A DNA stretch of 5,037 nucleotides from IMG/VR virus record IMGVR_UViG_3300020041_000257, positions 1-5,037 of that record; one strand, 5' to 3'. The notes beneath the pieces were generated by a model. That model saw only the letters and a list, made by a program, of their open reading frames with translations, ran no database searches and had not been told where the DNA came from. Of the stretch, positions 1-5,037 are shown in pieces. This DNA is from a virus. The translations under genes were made by a program, and so were the position numbers. Within the stretch, counting starts at the first letter, position 1, and the number at the start of each line of letters is the position of its first letter.

Positions 1-102
1 GTCAGCACCGCCAGAAAGGCATTGCTGAATCTTTCCAAGGTTGACAGAATCGCGCAGAAACGCAAATGTTGCATAATCCAAACGAATAACGTAAGTTGAC
101 AT
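1..102 (-). CDS. Duplicate copy of the first 34 codons of rep (same sequence as 4917..5018); not an independent gene
   Basis: ATG at 102..100 is preceded by AAAGGGGAG, identical to the 5016..5018 start region. On the circle the frame continues into the rep body upstream of 4917. Confidence 0.9.
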   Translation of the reverse strand, partial: MSTYVIRLDYATFAFLRDSVNLGKIQQCLSGGAD

Positions 103-121
103 AGCACATACTCCCCTTTCA
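1..121. repeat. Terminal direct repeat copy A, identical to 4917..5037; overlap from assembling a circular molecule
   Basis: Base-by-base comparison shows 1..121 equals 4917..5037 with no mismatch. The offset is 4916. The repeat lies inside the rep ORF plus its RBS, so it is not a discrete element. Confidence 0.95.
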
Positions 122-133
122 AACTCTACAGCT

Positions 134-162
134 ATGCTACCACGGGGCGGGGCTATTGTCAA
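134..162 (-). promoter_or_regulatory. Sigma70-type promoter for rep
   Basis: Minus strand reads TTGACA (162..157), a 17-nt spacer ATAGCCCCGCCCCGTGG, then TAGCAT (139..134). A TGn extended -10 is present and an A/T-rich block AATTAAAATAAAG lies upstream. The -10 is about 30 nt upstream of the rep ATG at 102. Confidence 0.6.
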
Positions 163-344
163 GGCTTTATTTTAATTGTGTCGGGGTATTACAGCCACCC
201 CGACAGGATGGCCGCCAGCAGGACAACGGAAGCCGCTGCTGCTCTGTTTTGGAAGGGCAAGGGCTTTGCCCTTGCAGGGACGGGGGACGCGGTGGGAGAC
301 GCTATCGCGTGACTAAACGTTGCAACTGCCAGCATAATTTTTCT
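163..344 (-). promoter_or_regulatory. Structured GC-rich intergenic region; candidate replication origin and Rep-binding region
   Basis: This is the only sizeable non-coding stretch. It holds an 8-bp hairpin TGTCGGGG/CCCCGACA at 179..205 with an 11-nt loop and an 8-bp hairpin GCAAGGGC-TTT-GCCCTTGC at 257..275. It also holds G-rich direct repeats GGGAC(G) at 277, GGGAC(G) at 284 and GGGAGAC(G) at 294, and the palindrome GTTGCAAC around 319..326. It sits between the last gene and the rep promoter, as the Ff intergenic region does. Confidence 0.4.
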
Positions 345-384
345 AAATAAAAACAACCCCCCTGACCCTAAAGGGCACGGGGGG
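345..384 (-). terminator. Rho-independent terminator after the assembly ATPase gene
   Basis: Minus strand reads CCCCCC (384..379), a 16-nt loop, GGGGGG (362..357), then TTGTTTTTATTT. The A-tract before the stem can extend the pairing. It starts 6 nt after the TAA at 393..391. Confidence 0.65.
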
Positions 385-390
385 AAGTTT

Positions 391-1014
391 TTATTTAGAA
401 GGGGTCTTGCTGATAACCTGCTCTGTATCGTATTCTAAAGCGCTAACCTGCTTCACGGACTTAGGGATAGTATACCACCTTGCCCGTCCTGCCTTGCGCA
501 CCGTATTAACTAACTCTTGACCGCCCTCGGGACGATGCTCCATAGCAATACACGAGCGATAAGGAGTGAGACGACAGAACCAGCCAAGGCGGTTACAAAG
601 GTAAATACGGTCGCAGAGGTCACGAATTTTCTTGTCAAAGTCCATAGTCTGAGACGATACAATAATCGTCAGGTGATACTTACGCTGCATTTTGAAAAAC
701 TCAACTGCATCTCGGGGCATAGTCTTAAAATCACGGTTAGAGTGCAAAACGCCTATCTCATCAATAAGAATAAGGGAATCAGGGACAAAGGTCTGTTTCC
801 AATATTCCGTCTCTAACTCATAACCAATACCCATATTGCTATAAATAAGCCCCTTATTAGCACGAAGCCACTTATCAGCAACACGAGACATATACAGAGA
901 CTTGCCAGAGCCTTTTGAACCAACAACAGCTTCAAGCTTGTAGGGATTTTTGCAATAGTTATCGATATAAACAAAAAGCCAGCAAATGCAAAAGAAAAGA
1001 ATACCATAAAGCAT
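391..1014 (-). CDS. Zot / pI-like P-loop NTPase, filamentous-phage assembly protein; N-terminal TM helix, 207 aa
   Basis: Walker A is VVGSKGSGKS and Walker B is LILIDEIG. The N-terminal hydrophobic helix is MLYGILFFCICWLFVYI. SD AAAGGA lies 9 nt upstream of the ATG. The gene sits last in a module of small hydrophobic proteins. Confidence 0.75.
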   Translation of the reverse strand: MLYGILFFCICWLFVYIDNYCKNPYKLEAVVGSKGSGKSLYMSRVADKWLRANKGLIYSNMGIGYELETEYWKQTFVPDSLILIDEIGVLHSNRDFKTMPRDAVEFFKMQRKYHLTIIVSSQTMDFDKKIRDLCDRIYLCNRLGWFCRLTPYRSCIAMEHRPEGGQELVNTVRKAGRARWYTIPKSVKQVSALEYDTEQVISKTPSK

Positions 1015-1033
1015 AACATAAAATCCTTTCTAA

Positions 1034-1079
1034 ATGAGAAAACGTCGCCGACCATTAAAATGGTCGGCGGCGTTTTCTC
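1034..1079 (-). terminator. Long hairpin with U-tract; intrinsic terminator after the putative major coat gene, possibly also a packaging signal
   Basis: Arm 1036..1056 pairs with arm 1059..1079: 21 bp, one mismatch, 2-nt apex. The GC-rich core is CGCCGCCGACCA/TGGTCGGCGACG. On the minus strand the 3' side runs TTTTCTCATTT. Confidence 0.6.
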
Positions 1080-1086
1080 TCAGCGT

Positions 1087-1215
1087 TTAACTACGGCCGG
1101 GAATCCAGCGGCGAAGGATACGGAGAACGATGCCCGCAATAGTGAGGATCACGAAGACAAGAAGAATGGGCTGAGACTCATAGAAATCAATGAGCTGACC
1201 CATCCAAGTAATCAT
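1087..1215 (-). CDS. 42-aa Pf3-like candidate major coat protein, MITWMGQLIDFYESQPILLVFVILTIAGIVLRILRRWIPGRS
   Basis: Hand translation gives an acidic N-terminus (D10, E13), a roughly 16-residue hydrophobic core and a C-terminus with 4 Arg. This is the classical pVIII charge layout. A strong terminator follows immediately, as after Ff gene VIII. The SD is weak (GGTGAG, 12 nt upstream), so the start is uncertain; M5 is an alternative. Confidence 0.5.
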   Translation of the reverse strand: MITWMGQLIDFYESQPILLVFVILTIAGIVLRILRRWIPGRS

Positions 1216-1313
1216 CGATGTGAAGAACTCACCGACCAAGGAAAGCAGCGTTGCGAGAATAGAAGAAGCGGCCTGAAGTCATCATCCTTTCATAGAAATA
1301 TTTATGGCACCTG

Positions 1314-1427
1314 TCACGGACGGAGCAGGAGGACCAACATAGAAAAAACAGCGGCGAAGATAATGAAAAAGCCAATTTCGGGAACAGAAAAGATACCGAA
1401 ACAATACTGTAAAGGAAGAAATTCCAT
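1314..1427 (-). CDS. 37-aa hydrophobic protein (pVII/pIX-like size), MEFLPLQYCFGIFSVPEIGFFIIFAAVFSMLVLLLRP
   Basis: The ATG overlaps the TAA stop of the 204-aa ORF (TAATG). It has a single TM-like segment. It is below the ORF-track length cutoff and was found by hand translation. Confidence 0.45.
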   Translation of the reverse strand: MEFLPLQYCFGIFSVPEIGFFIIFAAVFSMLVLLLRP

Positions 1428-2041
1428 TAGCTCATGCGCCCCCAAATCGCGTTTTTAATCCAAGTAACAGTAGTGATGAAAACAAGGACAACAAGCAAAG
1501 CAGAAACGCAAGCCTGCGGGTTGAGAACCTGAGATGTAGTAGTGGTATCTTCCTCATAAGGAAGTTGAATAAGGTGGGTCGCACTGTTATAGGAATACCT
1601 TTCAGAAGTATACCCGGACGTGTGCACCGTCTCAGAACGTTCAATAAAAAACGTGTCTCCGAACCAATCCATAATAGAAGTGAAACTATTAGAGACATTA
1701 GGGAGATTAGCATACAAAGCCGGAGTATCAGCGGCACGGTCATCATAAGCGGTCAAACTCCCCTCAAAAGGCAATTCTACTTCCTCCGGCACATAGCCGT
1801 CGCGGAGATCTGGAGATTCAGTAATATTCTGCGCGGGTTGCTCAGGAGAAGGAGCAGCTTCCGAGGGAGATTCAGCAGCGGCTTTAGCATTCATATCGGC
1901 GACAGCCTGCGCAGATGCCTTAAGATAGTCATACTGCTGGACGGTCATATCGCAATTACTACCATCTTTATATTGCACAGTGTAGACGGTAACGCCGTCA
2001 GAATCAACCCAAGTTTTGATAATAGCAGGGACTTCCATCAT
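1427..2041 (-). CDS. 204-aa hypothetical protein with a C-terminal TM anchor; candidate minor virion or assembly protein
   Basis: This ORF is in the supplied track. Its ATG overlaps the upstream stop (ATGA) and GGAGGTG lies 5 nt upstream. It has a Pro/Glu/Ala/Ser linker (AAAESPSEAAPSPEQPAQ) and a C-terminal helix ACVSALLVVLVFITTVTWI. I recognise no family match. Confidence 0.7.
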   Translation of the reverse strand: MMEVPAIIKTWVDSDGVTVYTVQYKDGSNCDMTVQQYDYLKASAQAVADMNAKAAAESPSEAAPSPEQPAQNITESPDLRDGYVPEEVELPFEGSLTAYDDRAADTPALYANLPNVSNSFTSIMDWFGDTFFIERSETVHTSGYTSERYSYNSATHLIQLPYEEDTTTTSQVLNPQACVSALLVVLVFITTVTWIKNAIWGRMS

Positions 2042-2205
2042 TCATCACCTCCATCCCAAAGGCCACGGAAAACAAAGCCAACAAGCGAAAGCAGAAGACA
2101 AACAAGAACGAAGTGACCAAAGGTACCGAAACCGAAAAAAGAAAGATTCAAAATATTTGCGATAAAAGATGTTACAACACCGAGAGCCGAGACAAAGTCT
2201 ACCAT
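2038..2205 (-). CDS. 55-aa two-helix hydrophobic protein, MVDFVSALGVVTSFIANILNLSFFGFGTFGHFVLVCLLLSLVGFVFRGLWDGGDE
   Basis: Found by hand translation. SD AAAGGA lies 9 nt upstream. The start overlaps the stop of the 43-aa ORF (ATGGTAG), and its stop overlaps the next ATG (ATGA). Confidence 0.5.
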   Translation of the reverse strand: MVDFVSALGVVTSFIANILNLSFFGFGTFGHFVLVCLLLSLVGFVFRGLWDGGDE

Positions 2206-2330
2206 GGCAACCAATCCTTTACGAATTTATAAATACCAAGCGCGACGAGAAAAACGACAACGGCGATAACAAGCGCACCACCGGAACCAAGAAGACGAAA
2301 AACCTCTTTGAAAAAGTCAATAAAAGTCAT
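2199..2330 (-). CDS. 43-aa single-TM protein, alternative coat candidate, MTFIDFFKEVFRLLGSGGALVIAVVVFLVALGIYKFVKDWLPW
   Basis: Found by hand translation. Its ATG overlaps the TGA of the 386-aa ORF (ATGA) and GAAAGG lies 10 nt upstream. It has an acidic N-terminal part, the hydrophobic core GALVIAVVVFLVALGIY and a C-terminus carrying K36 and K39. Confidence 0.5.
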   Translation of the reverse strand: MTFIDFFKEVFRLLGSGGALVIAVVVFLVALGIYKFVKDWLPW

Positions 2331-3487
2331 CCGTCAACCGCCTTTCGTATCAACATACGGAGCACAACGGCACCGAAAACCATGAGAGAAACTATGAAGA
2401 GGAACCCGCTAAGATTCTGAAACAAGGCATTGAGAGCTGAAATAGAGGTCGATGCAACGTCAGTATCAACAGTTTCAGTATCGTTCCAGCCCTCAATAGT
2501 AGCCTTATCTGTTTTGACATGACCAGACGCTTCAGGGAACTGTTTGAGAAGTTCGTCGCGGATATTCTCAAAAGCATCATTATTAGAGGGGAACTCGTCA
2601 CCAACAGAAAGCCCAGGTGGCAGCTTATTAGCATCAATCCAATAAGATACAACAGCAGTAGCTTCAAGACGATACTTTCCAGGAGTAGAAGGAGTGTGCC
2701 AAGATGGATAGGAAACAAAGAGAATAAGAGAATCAGAAGAGGCGTTATAAAGGACGGACATGCTACGAAGAGAAAAATTAAGGGTCTCATTCGCACTAGA
2801 ATAATACTCATTAAACCCCATAATTATTTGGGAGAAAGATTCAATAGCCTGTGTTCCAGACTGATTAAGGTTAGAGGATATATTAGGAAAACGAATACCA
2901 TTAGCAAGGGAACGAGAAGTACTAGAACCGGAAGTCGTTTCAACCACAGACATAGTATCAACAGGATACAATATAATATCCTGAGACAAAGTCATAGCAG
3001 AGGAAGTATAGGAACGAGAAACAGAAAAACCATACTCAGGATTCACTAAAAGAAACTCAAGGGTACCGGAAAGGGTTTCGCCACTAGTATAAGAAGAGCC
3101 AGAAGTGCGACGCCATTCAACAACACGAGGGGAATCAACCTGAATATAAGAGCGAGAACCAAGAGGAACAGGAGCGCGCCACCAATCGGGGTAATTTACA
3201 GGAAGAGACCACCAATCATAATAGCTACCAGAAACAGTAGATTGAATCGAAGAAGATTCAGTAATAAAGCGAGTACGATAAAGCTCACCATTGACATATG
3301 GAGAGACATGGAAATAAGTAGACTGTGTTCCAGATTCATTTGCCAACTGTTTCTGCTCAGTAATGACCCATTTTTGAGAAGCAGCATTGTTTGAAGCAAA
3401 ACAAGGCACACATAGAGACGCACAAAGCATCAGTGCCGAGAGAAGGGCGGCGAAGCGCTTATAAAAAAACCGATGCTTAATATTCAC
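2327..3487 (-). CDS. 386-aa secreted, C-terminally membrane-anchored protein; pIII-like adsorption / minor coat candidate
   Basis: GTG start with AAAGGG 9 nt upstream. The signal peptide is MNIKHRFFYKRFAALLSALMLCASLCVPCFA|SN. The ectodomain is Ser/Thr-rich. The C-terminal TM plus basic tail is LSGFLFIVSLMVFGAVVLRMLIRKAVDG. The architecture matches pIII, but I can assert no sequence homology. Confidence 0.65.
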   Translation of the reverse strand: MNIKHRFFYKRFAALLSALMLCASLCVPCFASNNAASQKWVITEQKQLANESGTQSTYFHVSPYVNGELYRTRFITESSSIQSTVSGSYYDWWSLPVNYPDWWRAPVPLGSRSYIQVDSPRVVEWRRTSGSSYTSGETLSGTLEFLLVNPEYGFSVSRSYTSSAMTLSQDIILYPVDTMSVVETTSGSSTSRSLANGIRFPNISSNLNQSGTQAIESFSQIIMGFNEYYSSANETLNFSLRSMSVLYNASSDSLILFVSYPSWHTPSTPGKYRLEATAVVSYWIDANKLPPGLSVGDEFPSNNDAFENIRDELLKQFPEASGHVKTDKATIEGWNDTETVDTDVASTSISALNALFQNLSGFLFIVSLMVFGAVVLRMLIRKAVDG

Positions 3488-3535
3488 TTCACCACACCCT
3501 TTCTCGACATCGAATAACGGAGGTCAAGTCCGTTT

Positions 3536-3609
3536 TGGTTGCGGGGTCTGGATTCGAACCAGCAGTTCCACATTCAGAGTGTGGCGTGCTACCATTGCAC
3601 CACCCCGCC
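3536..3609 (-). tRNA. tRNA-Gln, anticodon CUG, 74 nt with encoded CCA
   Basis: Minus strand reads GGCGGGG TG GTGC AATGGTA GCAC G CCACA CTCTGAA TGTGG AACT GCTGG TTCGAAT CCAGA CCCCGCA A CCA. U8, A14, G18G19, A21, U33, the T54-loop TTCGAAT and G53-C61 are all present. The anticodon loop is C-U-CUG-A-A. G1.A72 and G49.A65 are mismatched. Confidence 0.8.
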
Positions 3610-3646
3610 ATAGGCCGCAGAAGCGGCCAGAGAGATTGAAAGAGAT

Positions 3647-3675
3647 ATGTTATTGTTAGAGTTTTTCAATGCCAA
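3647..3675 (-). promoter_or_regulatory. Possible internal promoter upstream of the tRNA and structural module
   Basis: Minus strand reads TTGGCA (3675..3670), a 17-nt spacer, then TAACAT (3652..3647). It overlaps the 3' end of the SSB gene. The match is 5/6 and 4/6 to consensus, so support is weak. Confidence 0.3.
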
Positions 3676-3898
3676 GGAGATACCCGTTGCGATCAAAATT
3701 GAGATCGTACGTAGCACCAACTTCAACCAGCGCAAAAGGCATCATAGTGGCGTTAACATTGATTCTATCAACCGAAACGCCCGCGTTATCATCGTTTGCA
3801 CGCATGTCAAACTCGGCCATAATGGTCGTAAAATCATAGTCTTTACCAGCTTTGGACTTACCAGCACGGCGGGATTTACCGACTACCAAAATCCGCAT
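3656..3898 (-). CDS. 80-aa gene-V-like ssDNA-binding protein (candidate)
   Basis: It lies immediately downstream of rep and overlaps it by 23 nt. AAGGAG lies 10 nt upstream. Its size is typical of G5P. The segment GKSRRAGKSKAGKDYDF resembles the M13 gVp DNA-binding wing TRSGVSRQGKPYS. The assignment rests on position, size and this loose motif resemblance. Confidence 0.55.
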   Translation of the reverse strand: MRILVVGKSRRAGKSKAGKDYDFTTIMAEFDMRANDDNAGVSVDRINVNATMMPFALVEVGATYDLNFDRNGYLLGIEKL

Positions 3899-5018
3899 AT
3901 GTTCGGAACTCCTTTCCTTTTAGAATATCTATTTCTTCAAACTCTCCATTCTCTGACCACGGGGAGTAAGAATCGGCAGGAAGATCTACAAATTCATCAA
4001 GAGCTTGGTCATGGAAATAAACAGAGAATCCAATATCCAGACCGAACTTTTCACGAGCAGCATCACGGCAAATCGCGAGAAGACGCTCATCGCGAAGGAT
4101 ATAGGGAATGTAGCAACCATAATGAGAAGCAGCATACTCAAGAGACTTATCGAAGCTGTACGGGGCGCAGTACTTACGCGCAGAGACGTTTGCAAAAACG
4201 ACATCGGAATAAGGGGATGCGATATCCTCGACAGGGTGCAAGTTAAGGACGGAAATATCGGTGACAAACTCAGCATTTTCGAAGTCATCCGGAAGCATAA
4301 CATCCGAGCCGAAAGACAGCCAAGAATCACGGACATATCGAGAAAGAAATTCAGAATCAGAATAATACCAGTCAAAAAGCGGAGAAGGGTCAGAATAAGC
4401 CTTTTGACCGCGTAACCAGCGACTTTTCCACGAGGATTCAATCTCATAACGAATGACGCATTCATCATCGGCAACAGGAGTTATAGAGCCGTCAGGAGAG
4501 ACGAATTCATAAGAGGGAGACTGTAAAGACTTGTTATAGACACGGAAATATCGAGGACTATTACGAGAGCCAATATATACGGTCATAGCCTCGCCAGAGC
4601 CTTGAAGAAGGAACTTTTTCCGCTGACGCTGGTTTTCCATGGAATAGGTGAAACAATTTGCGAGGTAAGAACGCCACGCAGAACGCTGCATAATCACATC
4701 AAAACAAAGGTCAATACGGCGGAAATGAGCCTGTTGTCCGGCATCGCGCATGACCTTGGCCAAACAAGGCAAAGTCTCGCGAAAATGCTCACATCCAACG
4801 CCGGAAACCTGCAAAATATGCGGATTCTCAGTAGAGCCGGATTCGGGCTTATAATACAATCCGTAAGGGGATTGAAGAGGGGAATTTATAGAGTTGCCGA
4901 ACTGACGAAAACCAAGGTCAGCACCGCCAGAAAGGCATTGCTGAATCTTTCCAAGGTTGACAGAATCGCGCAGAAACGCAAATGTTGCATAATCCAAACG
5001 AATAACGTAAGTTGACAT
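3876..5018 (-). CDS. Rolling-circle replication initiation protein, Rep_trans (PF02486-like; family of CTXphi RstA)
   Basis: The N-terminal motif is VIRLDYATFAF. RIDLCFD and MTVYIGSRNSPRYFRVYNK match the conserved R-x-D-x-x-x-D and T-x-Y-x-G-S-R...R-x-Y-x-K blocks of this family as I recall them. SD AAAGGGGAG lies 8 nt upstream of the ATG. Confidence 0.75.
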   Translation of the reverse strand: MSTYVIRLDYATFAFLRDSVNLGKIQQCLSGGADLGFRQFGNSINSPLQSPYGLYYKPESGSTENPHILQVSGVGCEHFRETLPCLAKVMRDAGQQAHFRRIDLCFDVIMQRSAWRSYLANCFTYSMENQRQRKKFLLQGSGEAMTVYIGSRNSPRYFRVYNKSLQSPSYEFVSPDGSITPVADDECVIRYEIESSWKSRWLRGQKAYSDPSPLFDWYYSDSEFLSRYVRDSWLSFGSDVMLPDDFENAEFVTDISVLNLHPVEDIASPYSDVVFANVSARKYCAPYSFDKSLEYAASHYGCYIPYILRDERLLAICRDAAREKFGLDIGFSVYFHDQALDEFVDLPADSYSPWSENGEFEEIDILKGKEFRTYADFGSR

Positions 5019-5037
5019 AGCACATACTCCCCTTTCA
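4917..5037. repeat. Terminal direct repeat copy B, identical to 1..121
   Basis: Exact 121-nt identity with the window start. Confidence 0.95.

Follow-up and report, generated by a model that had tools for sequence, protein, structure and literature searches.

Filamentous phages of the Ff group (M13, fd and f1) have a rolling-circle Rep, a single-stranded DNA (ssDNA)-binding protein (SSB) of the gene V type with an oligonucleotide/oligosaccharide-binding (OB) fold, small hydrophobic coat proteins, an anchored protein of the tip type, and a P-loop assembly ATPase of the pI/Zot kind, together with one coding strand and a structured intergenic region. The virus record IMGVR_UViG_3300020041_000257, whose 5,037 nucleotides (nt) form the window analysed here, has the same set. 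In contrast, it lacks pIV, its pI has no periplasmic C-terminal domain and carries the transmembrane (TM) segment at the N-terminus, its Rep is of the Rep_trans type and not gpII, and a long anchored gene stands before the small coat genes. It also differs from the Ff phages in carrying a tRNA gene, and its relatives integrate. The tRNA gene (3536-3609, minus strand), with anticodon CUG, and a gene for a 62-amino-acid (aa) protein that opens with CAG (1087-1275, minus strand) are the main subject here. We infer from sequence comparison that this tRNA is, on balance, probably a natural private initiator for the CAG start of that gene.

Other filamentous phages resemble the window in part. Those of Gram-positive bacteria, namely Propionibacterium phage B5, Clostridium phage CAK1, the Enterocloster inoviruses (PMC10061712) and the Firmicutes-targeted gut inoviruses (PMC8530359), are likened by their descriptions: they have a monoderm host of the Firmicutes type, no secretin, and a stand-alone Zot domain (PMC8530359). 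They differ in having genomes of 5.6-9.4 kb or 6.5-16 kb, with no tRNA reported (PMC10061712, PMC8530359). CTXphi and other XerCD-dif inoviruses share with the window's group the lack of an integrase, site-specific integration, and an apparently borrowed host recombinase. In contrast, the target of the window's group is not dif; the host has two inverted cores 1.3-1.5 kb apart, and attP lies in rep, with Rep truncated at residue 269.

The closest parallel for the tRNA is engineered. Anticodon mutants of initiator tRNA start translation at the codon that they match, glutamine being the main amino acid charged onto the CUA version (bioRxiv 10.1101/524249; PMC11744186). Like the phage tRNA, these 'amber initiator' tRNAs have an initiator acceptor stem and a non-CAU anticodon, which gives initiation at the complementary codon, an outcome predicted here for the phage. 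The phage tRNA differs from them in being natural, in belonging to a 4.9-kb ssDNA phage, in matching sense codons (CAG, CAA, ACG and ACU) at one gene, and in having lost the three G-C pairs of the anticodon stem. A further parallel is offered by phage suppressor tRNAs that serve recoding, as a phage-encoded tRNA would likewise gate the expression of a structural gene.

Four 'Inovirus sp.' GenBank records from pig faeces (MT135292, MT135293, MT135305 and MT135296) are 82-85% identical to the window in DNA over 33-66% of the genome. About 70 GenBank records from pig, lemur and rodent faeces, of 4.1-8.5 kb, share the Zot (PMC11281440), and 3,081 sequences belong to the Zot cluster at 90% identity. 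The genome is a new member of an abundant, catalogued and uncultured gut mini-inovirus clade, to which a host is now given, and as a genome it is ordinary. The initial annotation had placed it among the smallest Tubulavirales genomes; it is small yet unexceptional, since relatives of 4.1-4.9 kb are already deposited. The pig 'Inovirus sp.' records and human-gut contigs of IMG/VR have the gene order of the window, circular genomes of 4,914-5,466 nt and a Zot 92-98% identical to that of the window, and they share its tRNA-Gln(CUG) and CAG start. Most of them differ in Rep and in a 386-aa protein, which are swapped or strongly diverged. The four pig records (L001-L004; L numbers denote the loci compared) are annotated with only 2-4 coding sequences, which bear Microviridae-style names (protein A, C, F, H) on Rep, the 386-aa protein, a 204-aa protein and Zot, and the tRNA and the small genes are unannotated. 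Dulem virus 75 from a lemur (PP511378, 4,134 nt) and bajarodino virus 79 from a rodent (PQ006115, 4,930 nt) also have the layout of the window, circles of 4-5 kb (PMC11281440), and a stand-alone short Zot 55-59% identical to that of the window. Unlike the window, they have no tRNA, ATG or GTG at the homologous small gene, another Rep family, and a repressor.

The tRNA gene was missed by the initial annotation and was found with ARAGORN and Rfam, scoring 53.8 bits against RF00005 (cut-off 29); it has an encoded CCA end. The gene is present in all four GenBank relatives and in 33 of 37 IMG/VR relatives, and the four loci without it are partial contigs. Covariation was assessed on 33 distinct sequences. 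The cloverleaf is paired in 91.8% of cells, compared with 34-52% when the partner is slid, and 11 of the 21 pairs have compensatory double changes. T8, A14, G18, G19, T54, T55, C56, A58, C61 and the CCA end are invariant. An alternative acceptor register (2-8 with 63-69) was ruled out by the covariation of pairs 7-66 and 49-65. In L027 (1578-1646), one of the 33 IMG/VR relatives with the gene, the anticodon is called as four bases (ACTG) and the D loop is shortened, and this tRNA may be a damaged copy or an assembly error.

The acceptor end of the tRNA is initiator-type, comprising a 1x72 mismatch, G2-C71, C3-G70, G4-C69 and A73. Position 1 is unpaired with A72 (G.A or C.A) in 32 of the 33 sequences, and the one exception has U-A. 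The acceptor pairs 2-71, 3-70 and 4-69 are invariant except for G.U at 4-69 in two sequences, and A73 occurs in at least 90%. At all these acceptor positions the C1 variants match E. coli tRNAfMet. A D stem, an anticodon stem and an anticodon of another kind are found on the same molecule, as described further below. The 1x72 mismatch is a determinant for formyltransferase and IF2, and a role is likewise stated for the three G:C pairs of the initiator anticodon stem (bioRxiv 10.1101/524249).

The 5' motif of the tRNA is found in IMG/VR mostly in tRNA-Met(CAU) genes of large phages, several of which have C1xA72 and G/C-rich anticodon stems. Large phages in IMG/VR (L113, L116, L118, L119, L152 and others) carry an initiator-type tRNA-Met(CAU) with a compact D arm, TGGTGYAAYGGTARCA, and the acceptor and D arms of this initiator lineage recur in the inovirus tRNA. 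The flanks of the gene differ among relatives. In the window it is flanked by hairpins, GGCCGC-TTCT-GCGGCC just upstream (3610-3655) and AACGGA...TCCGTT just downstream (3490-3535), and there is a weak promoter-like site at 3647-3675; these may be processing or transcription signals.

The 62-aa gene lies before zot and opens directly after TGA TGA with CTT CAG, its first codon being the CAG at 1273-1275 (minus strand). The Shine-Dalgarno sequence AAAGGA (within GAAAGGA; 1285-1290, minus strand) is 9 nt upstream of the CAG. The TTG that the open reading frame (ORF) finder took as the start reads CAG in five of the relatives compared. Substitutions from the CAG onward have a coding periodicity of 0.139, 0.056 and 0.222 at codon positions 1, 2 and 3. 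A Shine-Dalgarno sequence followed by CAG, directly after stop codons, is present in 47 of 47 genomes of the CUG class, and the proteins have 61-63 aa. In the window, the combination of a Shine-Dalgarno sequence, CAG and an ORF of at least 30 codons occurs at two sites, this start and one in frame inside the 204-aa gene. The gene is often omitted by gene callers or called from an internal TTG, while its neighbours have near-identical PHROGs; genes of the CAG-start type may be systematically absent from phage protein catalogues.

The first codon of the 62-aa gene changes with the anticodon of the tRNA. The 47 genomes with anticodon CUG have CAG, L045 and L162 with UUG have CAA, L049 and L050 with CGU have ACG, and L047 with AGU has ACT. 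By genome comparison, the anticodon thus matches the first codon in 52 of 52 tRNA-bearing genomes of four anticodon classes, and the first codon is ATG or GTG in ten relatives without the tRNA. The tRNAs of the distant relatives (UUG, CGU and AGU) are homologous and occupy the same slot. Among those with threonine anticodons, L049 and L050 have a pyrimidine at position 37 and L047 has a mismatched closing pair; the discriminator of all three is U or C and not A, and L047 and L049 have U1-A72.

In the proposed sequence of events, the promoter upstream of rep (134-162) would drive rep, the SSB gene and the tRNA. The processed tRNA would be charged according to its anticodon, presumably with glutamine, formylated by way of its initiator acceptor stem, and brought to the P site where the coat mRNA presents its CAG. 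Phage transcription and the phage's own tRNA would then be needed for making coat protein, and so for extrusion by way of the Zot ATPase. If this holds, the tRNA would be the first natural dedicated non-AUG initiator tRNA found for a bacterial virus, as far as the literature was searched, and a natural counterpart of the engineered amber initiators. It would also account for the systematic failure of gene callers at the 62-aa gene and for the absence of that gene from PHROGs, and it would show that carrying a tRNA gene can be worthwhile for an ssDNA genome of 5 kb. The literature search on inovirus tRNAs and on natural non-AUG initiator tRNAs in phages found nothing, which is not proof of absence. 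T-box-type sensing of the tRNA by the leader is not supported, as the leader has only about 45 nt and no Rfam match.

Several features weigh against an initiator role. The initiator hallmark of three G-C pairs in the anticodon stem is lacking, with only one or two present: A-U predominates at 29-41, a G/C pair stands at 30-40 in 31 of 33 sequences, and 31-39 is G-C in 18 of 33. The D stem has an invariant U11-A24 instead of the initiator A11-U24, and the anticodons across the clade are CUG, UUG, CGU and AGU, not CAU. Two starts are not exclusive: in L049 a TTG also follows in frame 5 nt after the Shine-Dalgarno sequence, and in L045 an ATG lies five codons downstream. The 47 CUG genomes are close relatives of one another, and independent anticodon classes number only about four or five. 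The same anticodon stem and the elongator-type D stem would suit an ordinary elongator tRNA-Gln(CUG), serving in codon supply or standing in for a host tRNA that an anticodon nuclease has cut; in that case the CAG would be unrelated, and the 62-aa protein would start at a near-cognate or downstream codon. CAG is the preferred glutamine codon of the genome (31 vs 13), and counter-defence phage tRNAs are documented (PMC10264068). No tRNA-Gln was found in the host loci examined. However, phage tRNA-Gln(UUG) genes on the same scaffold (L132 and L157) have a paired 1-72 and G73, unlike the open 1x72 and A73 of the inovirus tRNA. The anticodon shifts to UUG, CGU and AGU on a homologous scaffold and the first codon of one gene shifts alike; no conserved canonical start stands ahead of the clearly coding sequence; and the Shine-Dalgarno sequence with CAG and a sufficient ORF is confined to the two sites named above. 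An elongator with an unrelated CAG is therefore considered rather improbable, and initiation at the CAG by the phage tRNA is preferred.

The product of the 62-aa gene is probably the major coat protein, as its composition and position suggest. It comprises a variable N-terminus of small residues, an acidic amphipathic helix, one TM segment and four C-terminal arginines, and its median identity to relatives exceeds that of every other small protein. Neither it nor its homologues match a PHROGs or Pfam family, which counts against the coat assignment. Alternatively, it could be a minor or assembly protein like pVI or Ace, with a 43-aa protein encoded after the 386-aa gene as the major coat. Ff phages have gVI, and CTXphi has ace, in front of pI/zot, a synteny that agrees with such an assignment, as does the single TM segment of the 43-aa protein with its two C-terminal lysines; neither assignment has a family match. 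In contrast, the 62-aa protein has the classic coat layout, including the four arginines, along with the highest identity, and its gene is preceded by a good Shine-Dalgarno sequence, with the strongest terminator-like hairpin after it. This hairpin (1046-1069, minus strand) has a 10-bp stem, lies between the 62-aa gene and zot, and overlaps a spurious Rfam match to mir-278. The pVI/Ace assignment is possible but unlikely, and the 62-aa protein is treated below as the probable coat.

The second subject is the integration of the clade through a short core inside rep. The attP core TATCGCATCCCCTTA (4210-4224, minus strand) has 15 bp in rep codons 264-270. Integrated relatives have the identical sequence as direct repeats on either side, and in the host it recurs, again without a difference, as the inverted repeats that bound an invertible segment. 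Members of the cluster of the window's 80-aa SSB are found on a 73-kb NCBI contig (L065) and a 166-kb European Nucleotide Archive (ENA) contig (L064). L065 contains a full prophage copy between direct repeats of the core, at 9675 and 14630, with a Rep 88% identical to that of the window. Its rep is split: residues 1-269 are at the right end, closing on a host-supplied stop, and residues 266-380 are at the left end. Truncated Rep clusters of 269 aa recur and are common among the homologue clusters. Across two Rep clades the conservation of the core is 0.94, compared with 0.72-0.78 in its flanks, and the reading frame differs (IASPY vs LSHPLS). Since it is conserved while read in different frames, the core is a DNA-level site. 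Close relatives integrate site-specifically via this core; the lifestyle is not exclusively episomal, nor does it depend on XerCD and dif, the two possibilities given in the initial annotation. A XerCD/dif site was rejected because the core occurs twice per host locus, inverted and bounding an invertible segment, unlike the single dif. The tRNA was also rejected as attP, the prophage ends falling in rep.

The host proteins that flank the prophage belong to clusters named Oscillibacter sp. or Oscillospiraceae. A second, partial prophage adjoins RadA and CotJ spore-coat genes of an Oscillospiraceae genome apparently misbinned as Alistipes. An Alistipes host, as labelled in GTDB (L044), was rejected, as the contig has 62% G+C, CotJA/B/C, and a RadA that clusters with Oscillospiraceae. 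This 96-kb contig (CAVDWO010000002.1, labelled Alistipes onderdonkii) is part of a GTDB representative metagenome-assembled genome and ends in the partial prophage, whose Zot is 82% identical. The host is very likely a gut member of the Oscillospiraceae, close to Oscillibacter, with attP inside rep. The monoderm host that the initial annotation had offered as one explanation for the missing secretin fits the Oscillospiraceae, hosts of the integrated relatives.

The host locus contains two inverted copies of the core 1.3-1.5 kb apart, which bound a segment with an HSP20 gene (14645-15952 in L065; also L068-L108, in Oscillibacter-like genomes). The segment sits between two divergent genes for SLH-domain proteins of about 1,000 aa. 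A metagenome scan with the core and its right host flank as query gave 41 loci, 39 of which are empty, phage-free sites. Among these 39 phage-free contigs from human-gut metagenomes, the segment has one orientation in 18 and the other in 21, and the partner flanks are always consistent. The segment is an invertible DNA switch, which probably serves S-layer phase variation. The link between attP and this inverton suggests a new route by which integrase-less phages borrow a host recombinase, and connects the insertion of prophages with S-layer phase variation in an anaerobe common in the gut. The joint picture, in which an orthogonal initiator tRNA would gate coat and virion production while the phage, lacking an integrase, would integrate through mimicry of the inverted repeat in the S-layer switch, leans only slightly to the probable side. 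A more distant relative (L042 and L043; Zot 54%) is an integrated prophage with a helix-turn-helix (HTH) repressor that adjoins a tyrosine-integrase gene near radA, which suggests that this branch uses a different integration route.

The genome itself is circular. Positions 1-121 of the window equal positions 4917-5037, an exact terminal repeat of 121 nt that leaves a non-redundant unit of 4,916 nt. The left copy (1-121) contains the first 102 nt of rep with its ribosome-binding site, and is an assembly overlap of a circular molecule; the right copy (4917-5037) is the same 121 nt. The ATG of rep lies at 5018, which corresponds to 102, and the left copy opens with codon 34 of rep. As rep starts inside the right copy, the repeat cuts its ORF, as the initial annotation had stated. 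An exact identity of 121 nt within 5 kb is not attributable to chance, and this is an overlap length typical of a de Bruijn assembler when the template is circular or tandem. Terminal repeats of 52-127 nt with differing break points and units of 4.5-5.6 kb are found in 24 circularly permuted IMG/VR relatives, the 9,716-nt ENA scaffold L052 is a head-to-tail dimer of a relative genome, and circular relatives of 4,914 and 4,916 nt are deposited in GenBank. These support the circular unit of the initial annotation independently of reads. The window is almost certainly a complete circular inovirus-like (Tubulavirales) genome of 4,916 nt.

Codon-position substitution patterns of the window's ORFs against about 40 relatives were used as a coding test. 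An excess of third-position substitutions was found in nine ORFs, all on the minus strand. The plus strand has 1716 A and 1052 T, and T occupies 49% of the third codon positions of the minus-strand genes, in line with the single T-rich coding strand described earlier. The minus-strand ORFs 189-356, 813-1055, 1229-1375 and 1282-1404 and the plus-strand ORFs were rejected as genes, as they have no coding periodicity or are frame shadows, and have no Pfam match. The Rfam matches to snoU6-53, mir-278 and STnc560 are sub-threshold and spurious. The genes follow one another on one strand as promoter, rep, gene-V-like SSB, tRNA, secreted anchored 386-aa protein, three small hydrophobic proteins with the 204-aa anchored protein, 62-aa probable coat gene, terminator, and stand-alone Zot/pI ATPase with an N-terminal membrane anchor, closing with the structured intergenic region.

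Two further alternatives concern the core and the nature of the molecule. The integrating enzyme is taken to be a host recombinase because the phage has no integrase, and the invertase of the switch is favoured over joining by Rep, with a chance that we put at about even. The absence of any recombinase gene within about 10 kb of the host switch weighs against this enzyme. It would suit a core that is the nick site of Rep, that is, the double-strand origin, where Rep joins the phage strand to a look-alike host sequence. Agreeing with this are the conservation of the core in DNA in two Rep_trans clades whatever the reading frame, the location of the origin within the rep gene in pT181-type plasmids, and the retention of the whole folded domain by the truncated 269-aa Rep of the prophage. 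However, the segment is inverted in about half of the 39 phage-free contigs, for which a conservative site-specific recombinase with exactly this core as its site seems to be required. Rep_trans origins are hairpin-borne, in contrast to the core, around which there is no hairpin (z = 0.05), and the structured intergenic region is the more usual location of an origin. Joining by Rep is thus a tentative alternative, less probable than recombination by the host invertase. Instead of a free phage, the window could also represent an artefact of assembly, prophages in tandem, or a plasmid of the rolling-circle type with phage-like genes; integrated relatives do exist, and Rep_trans is chiefly a plasmid family. 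In contrast, rep of the window is uninterrupted across the attP core, which is the excised configuration, while integrated copies have a split rep. Many independent assemblies of the same size are circularly permuted; the genes comprise Zot, a gene V fold and small coat-like proteins and no plasmid functions; relatives came from virome studies (PMC11281440); and PLSDB has no plasmid relatives of the window. An artefact or plasmid is accordingly very improbable. The description as a whole, namely a circular genome of an integrating Oscillospiraceae phage with a private-initiator tRNA, in which the conditional steps are read as such, is considered likely.

The rep gene (3876-5018, minus strand) encodes a Rep_trans-type rolling-circle initiator of 380 aa, with the motifs RVYNK at residue 159 and RYEIE at residue 190. 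It matches the PHROG replication initiator phrog_27843 at 7e-74, and PF02486 is precomputed on nearly all of its homologues. In the AlphaFold model, the folded domain of about residues 1-284 is confident and the tail of residues 285-380 has low confidence. The six best Foldseek matches of the model are RepDE/RepSTK1 structures (4CWE, 4CWC and 4CIJ) at E values of 6e-9 to 6e-7, and the next match is at 5e-3. The Rep_trans assignment of the initial annotation agrees with this fold, with the PHROG match and with the homologues. Of the profiles that it had named for checking, Zot (PF05707) scored above its cut-off, whereas Rep_trans (PF02486) gave 28.7 bits, marginally below the cut-off of 29.6, a point against the assignment.

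The gene-V-like OB-fold SSB of 80 aa (3656-3898, minus strand) overlaps the end of rep by 23 nt and shows the coding signature. It has no sequence-level match in Pfam or the Protein Data Bank (PDB). Its AlphaFold model is a five-stranded OB barrel (pLDDT 81), for which the top 15 Foldseek matches in the PDB are the Ff gene V protein, with modest scores (E about 0.02, TM-score 0.49-0.51, probability 1.0); SsbB and the Pf3 SSB rank after it. These structural matches, although modest, are consistent with the gene-V-like SSB proposed earlier.

The intergenic region (103-390, minus strand) is G+C-rich, structured and non-coding, with an ssDNA folding z of -3.8, and is a candidate site of the replication and packaging signals. 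It contains a promoter-like TTGACA-17-TAGCAT upstream of rep (134-162, minus strand), a terminator-like hairpin after zot (356-376, minus strand), and a 55-aa ORF (189-356) that lacks the coding signature. Within the clade, phages have swapped replication modules: besides the REP_ORF2-G2P and Rep_OBD types there are two clades of Rep_trans with about 45% identity between them (L007-L041 compared with the window; L055, L059, L063 and L162). The morphogenesis block is conserved while the replication modules vary.

The zot/pI-like assembly ATPase (391-1014, minus strand) has 207 aa, an N-terminal TM segment, Walker A (GSKGSGKS) at residue 32 and Walker B (LILIDE) at residue 81. It scores 26.8 bits against PF05707 (cut-off 20.3), in agreement with its earlier naming, and its profile has a weak match to the Neisseria Zot N-domain 2R2A. 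It lacks the C-terminal periplasmic domain and is thus the stand-alone form, which is described for Firmicutes-associated gut inoviruses (PMC8530359). A domain search of the window's ORFs on both strands detected no secretin, integrase, or regulator or repressor, as the initial annotation had reported. The missing pIV secretin is expected and not disqualifying, since the secretin belongs to phages of diderm hosts and the host here is monoderm.

The secreted C-anchored protein (2327-3487, minus strand; phrog_24417) has 386 aa, with signal-like residues 12-30 and a TM segment at 362-380. Its N-terminal two thirds are hypervariable among relatives and only the C-terminal third is conserved; it is a putative adsorption or tip protein. 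The pIII-like label given to it earlier holds for the signal-like N-terminus and the C-terminal TM segment, an architecture shared in the absence of homology to pIII. The 43-aa single-TM protein (2199-2330, minus strand; phrog_22214) is a putative minor coat or assembly protein. It is followed by a protein with two hydrophobic segments (2038-2214, minus strand; phrog_24276) of 55-58 aa, the likely ATG at 2205 giving 55 aa, and by the 204-aa protein (1427-2041, minus strand; phrog_27347), which has a C-terminal TM segment at 177-195 and no signal peptide. A hydrophobic protein of 37-43 aa (1314-1445, minus strand) has a likely ATG at 1427, for a length of 37 aa; this start and the stop of the 204-aa gene overlap. 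The four small hydrophobic proteins listed originally, of 43, 55-58, 37-43 and nominally 50 aa, are real genes by their codon-position substitutions. The window lacks an extra opposite-strand gene that many relatives have after zot (78 aa in L052 and L053, with no family match), and more distant relatives have an HTH_3 repressor after zot.

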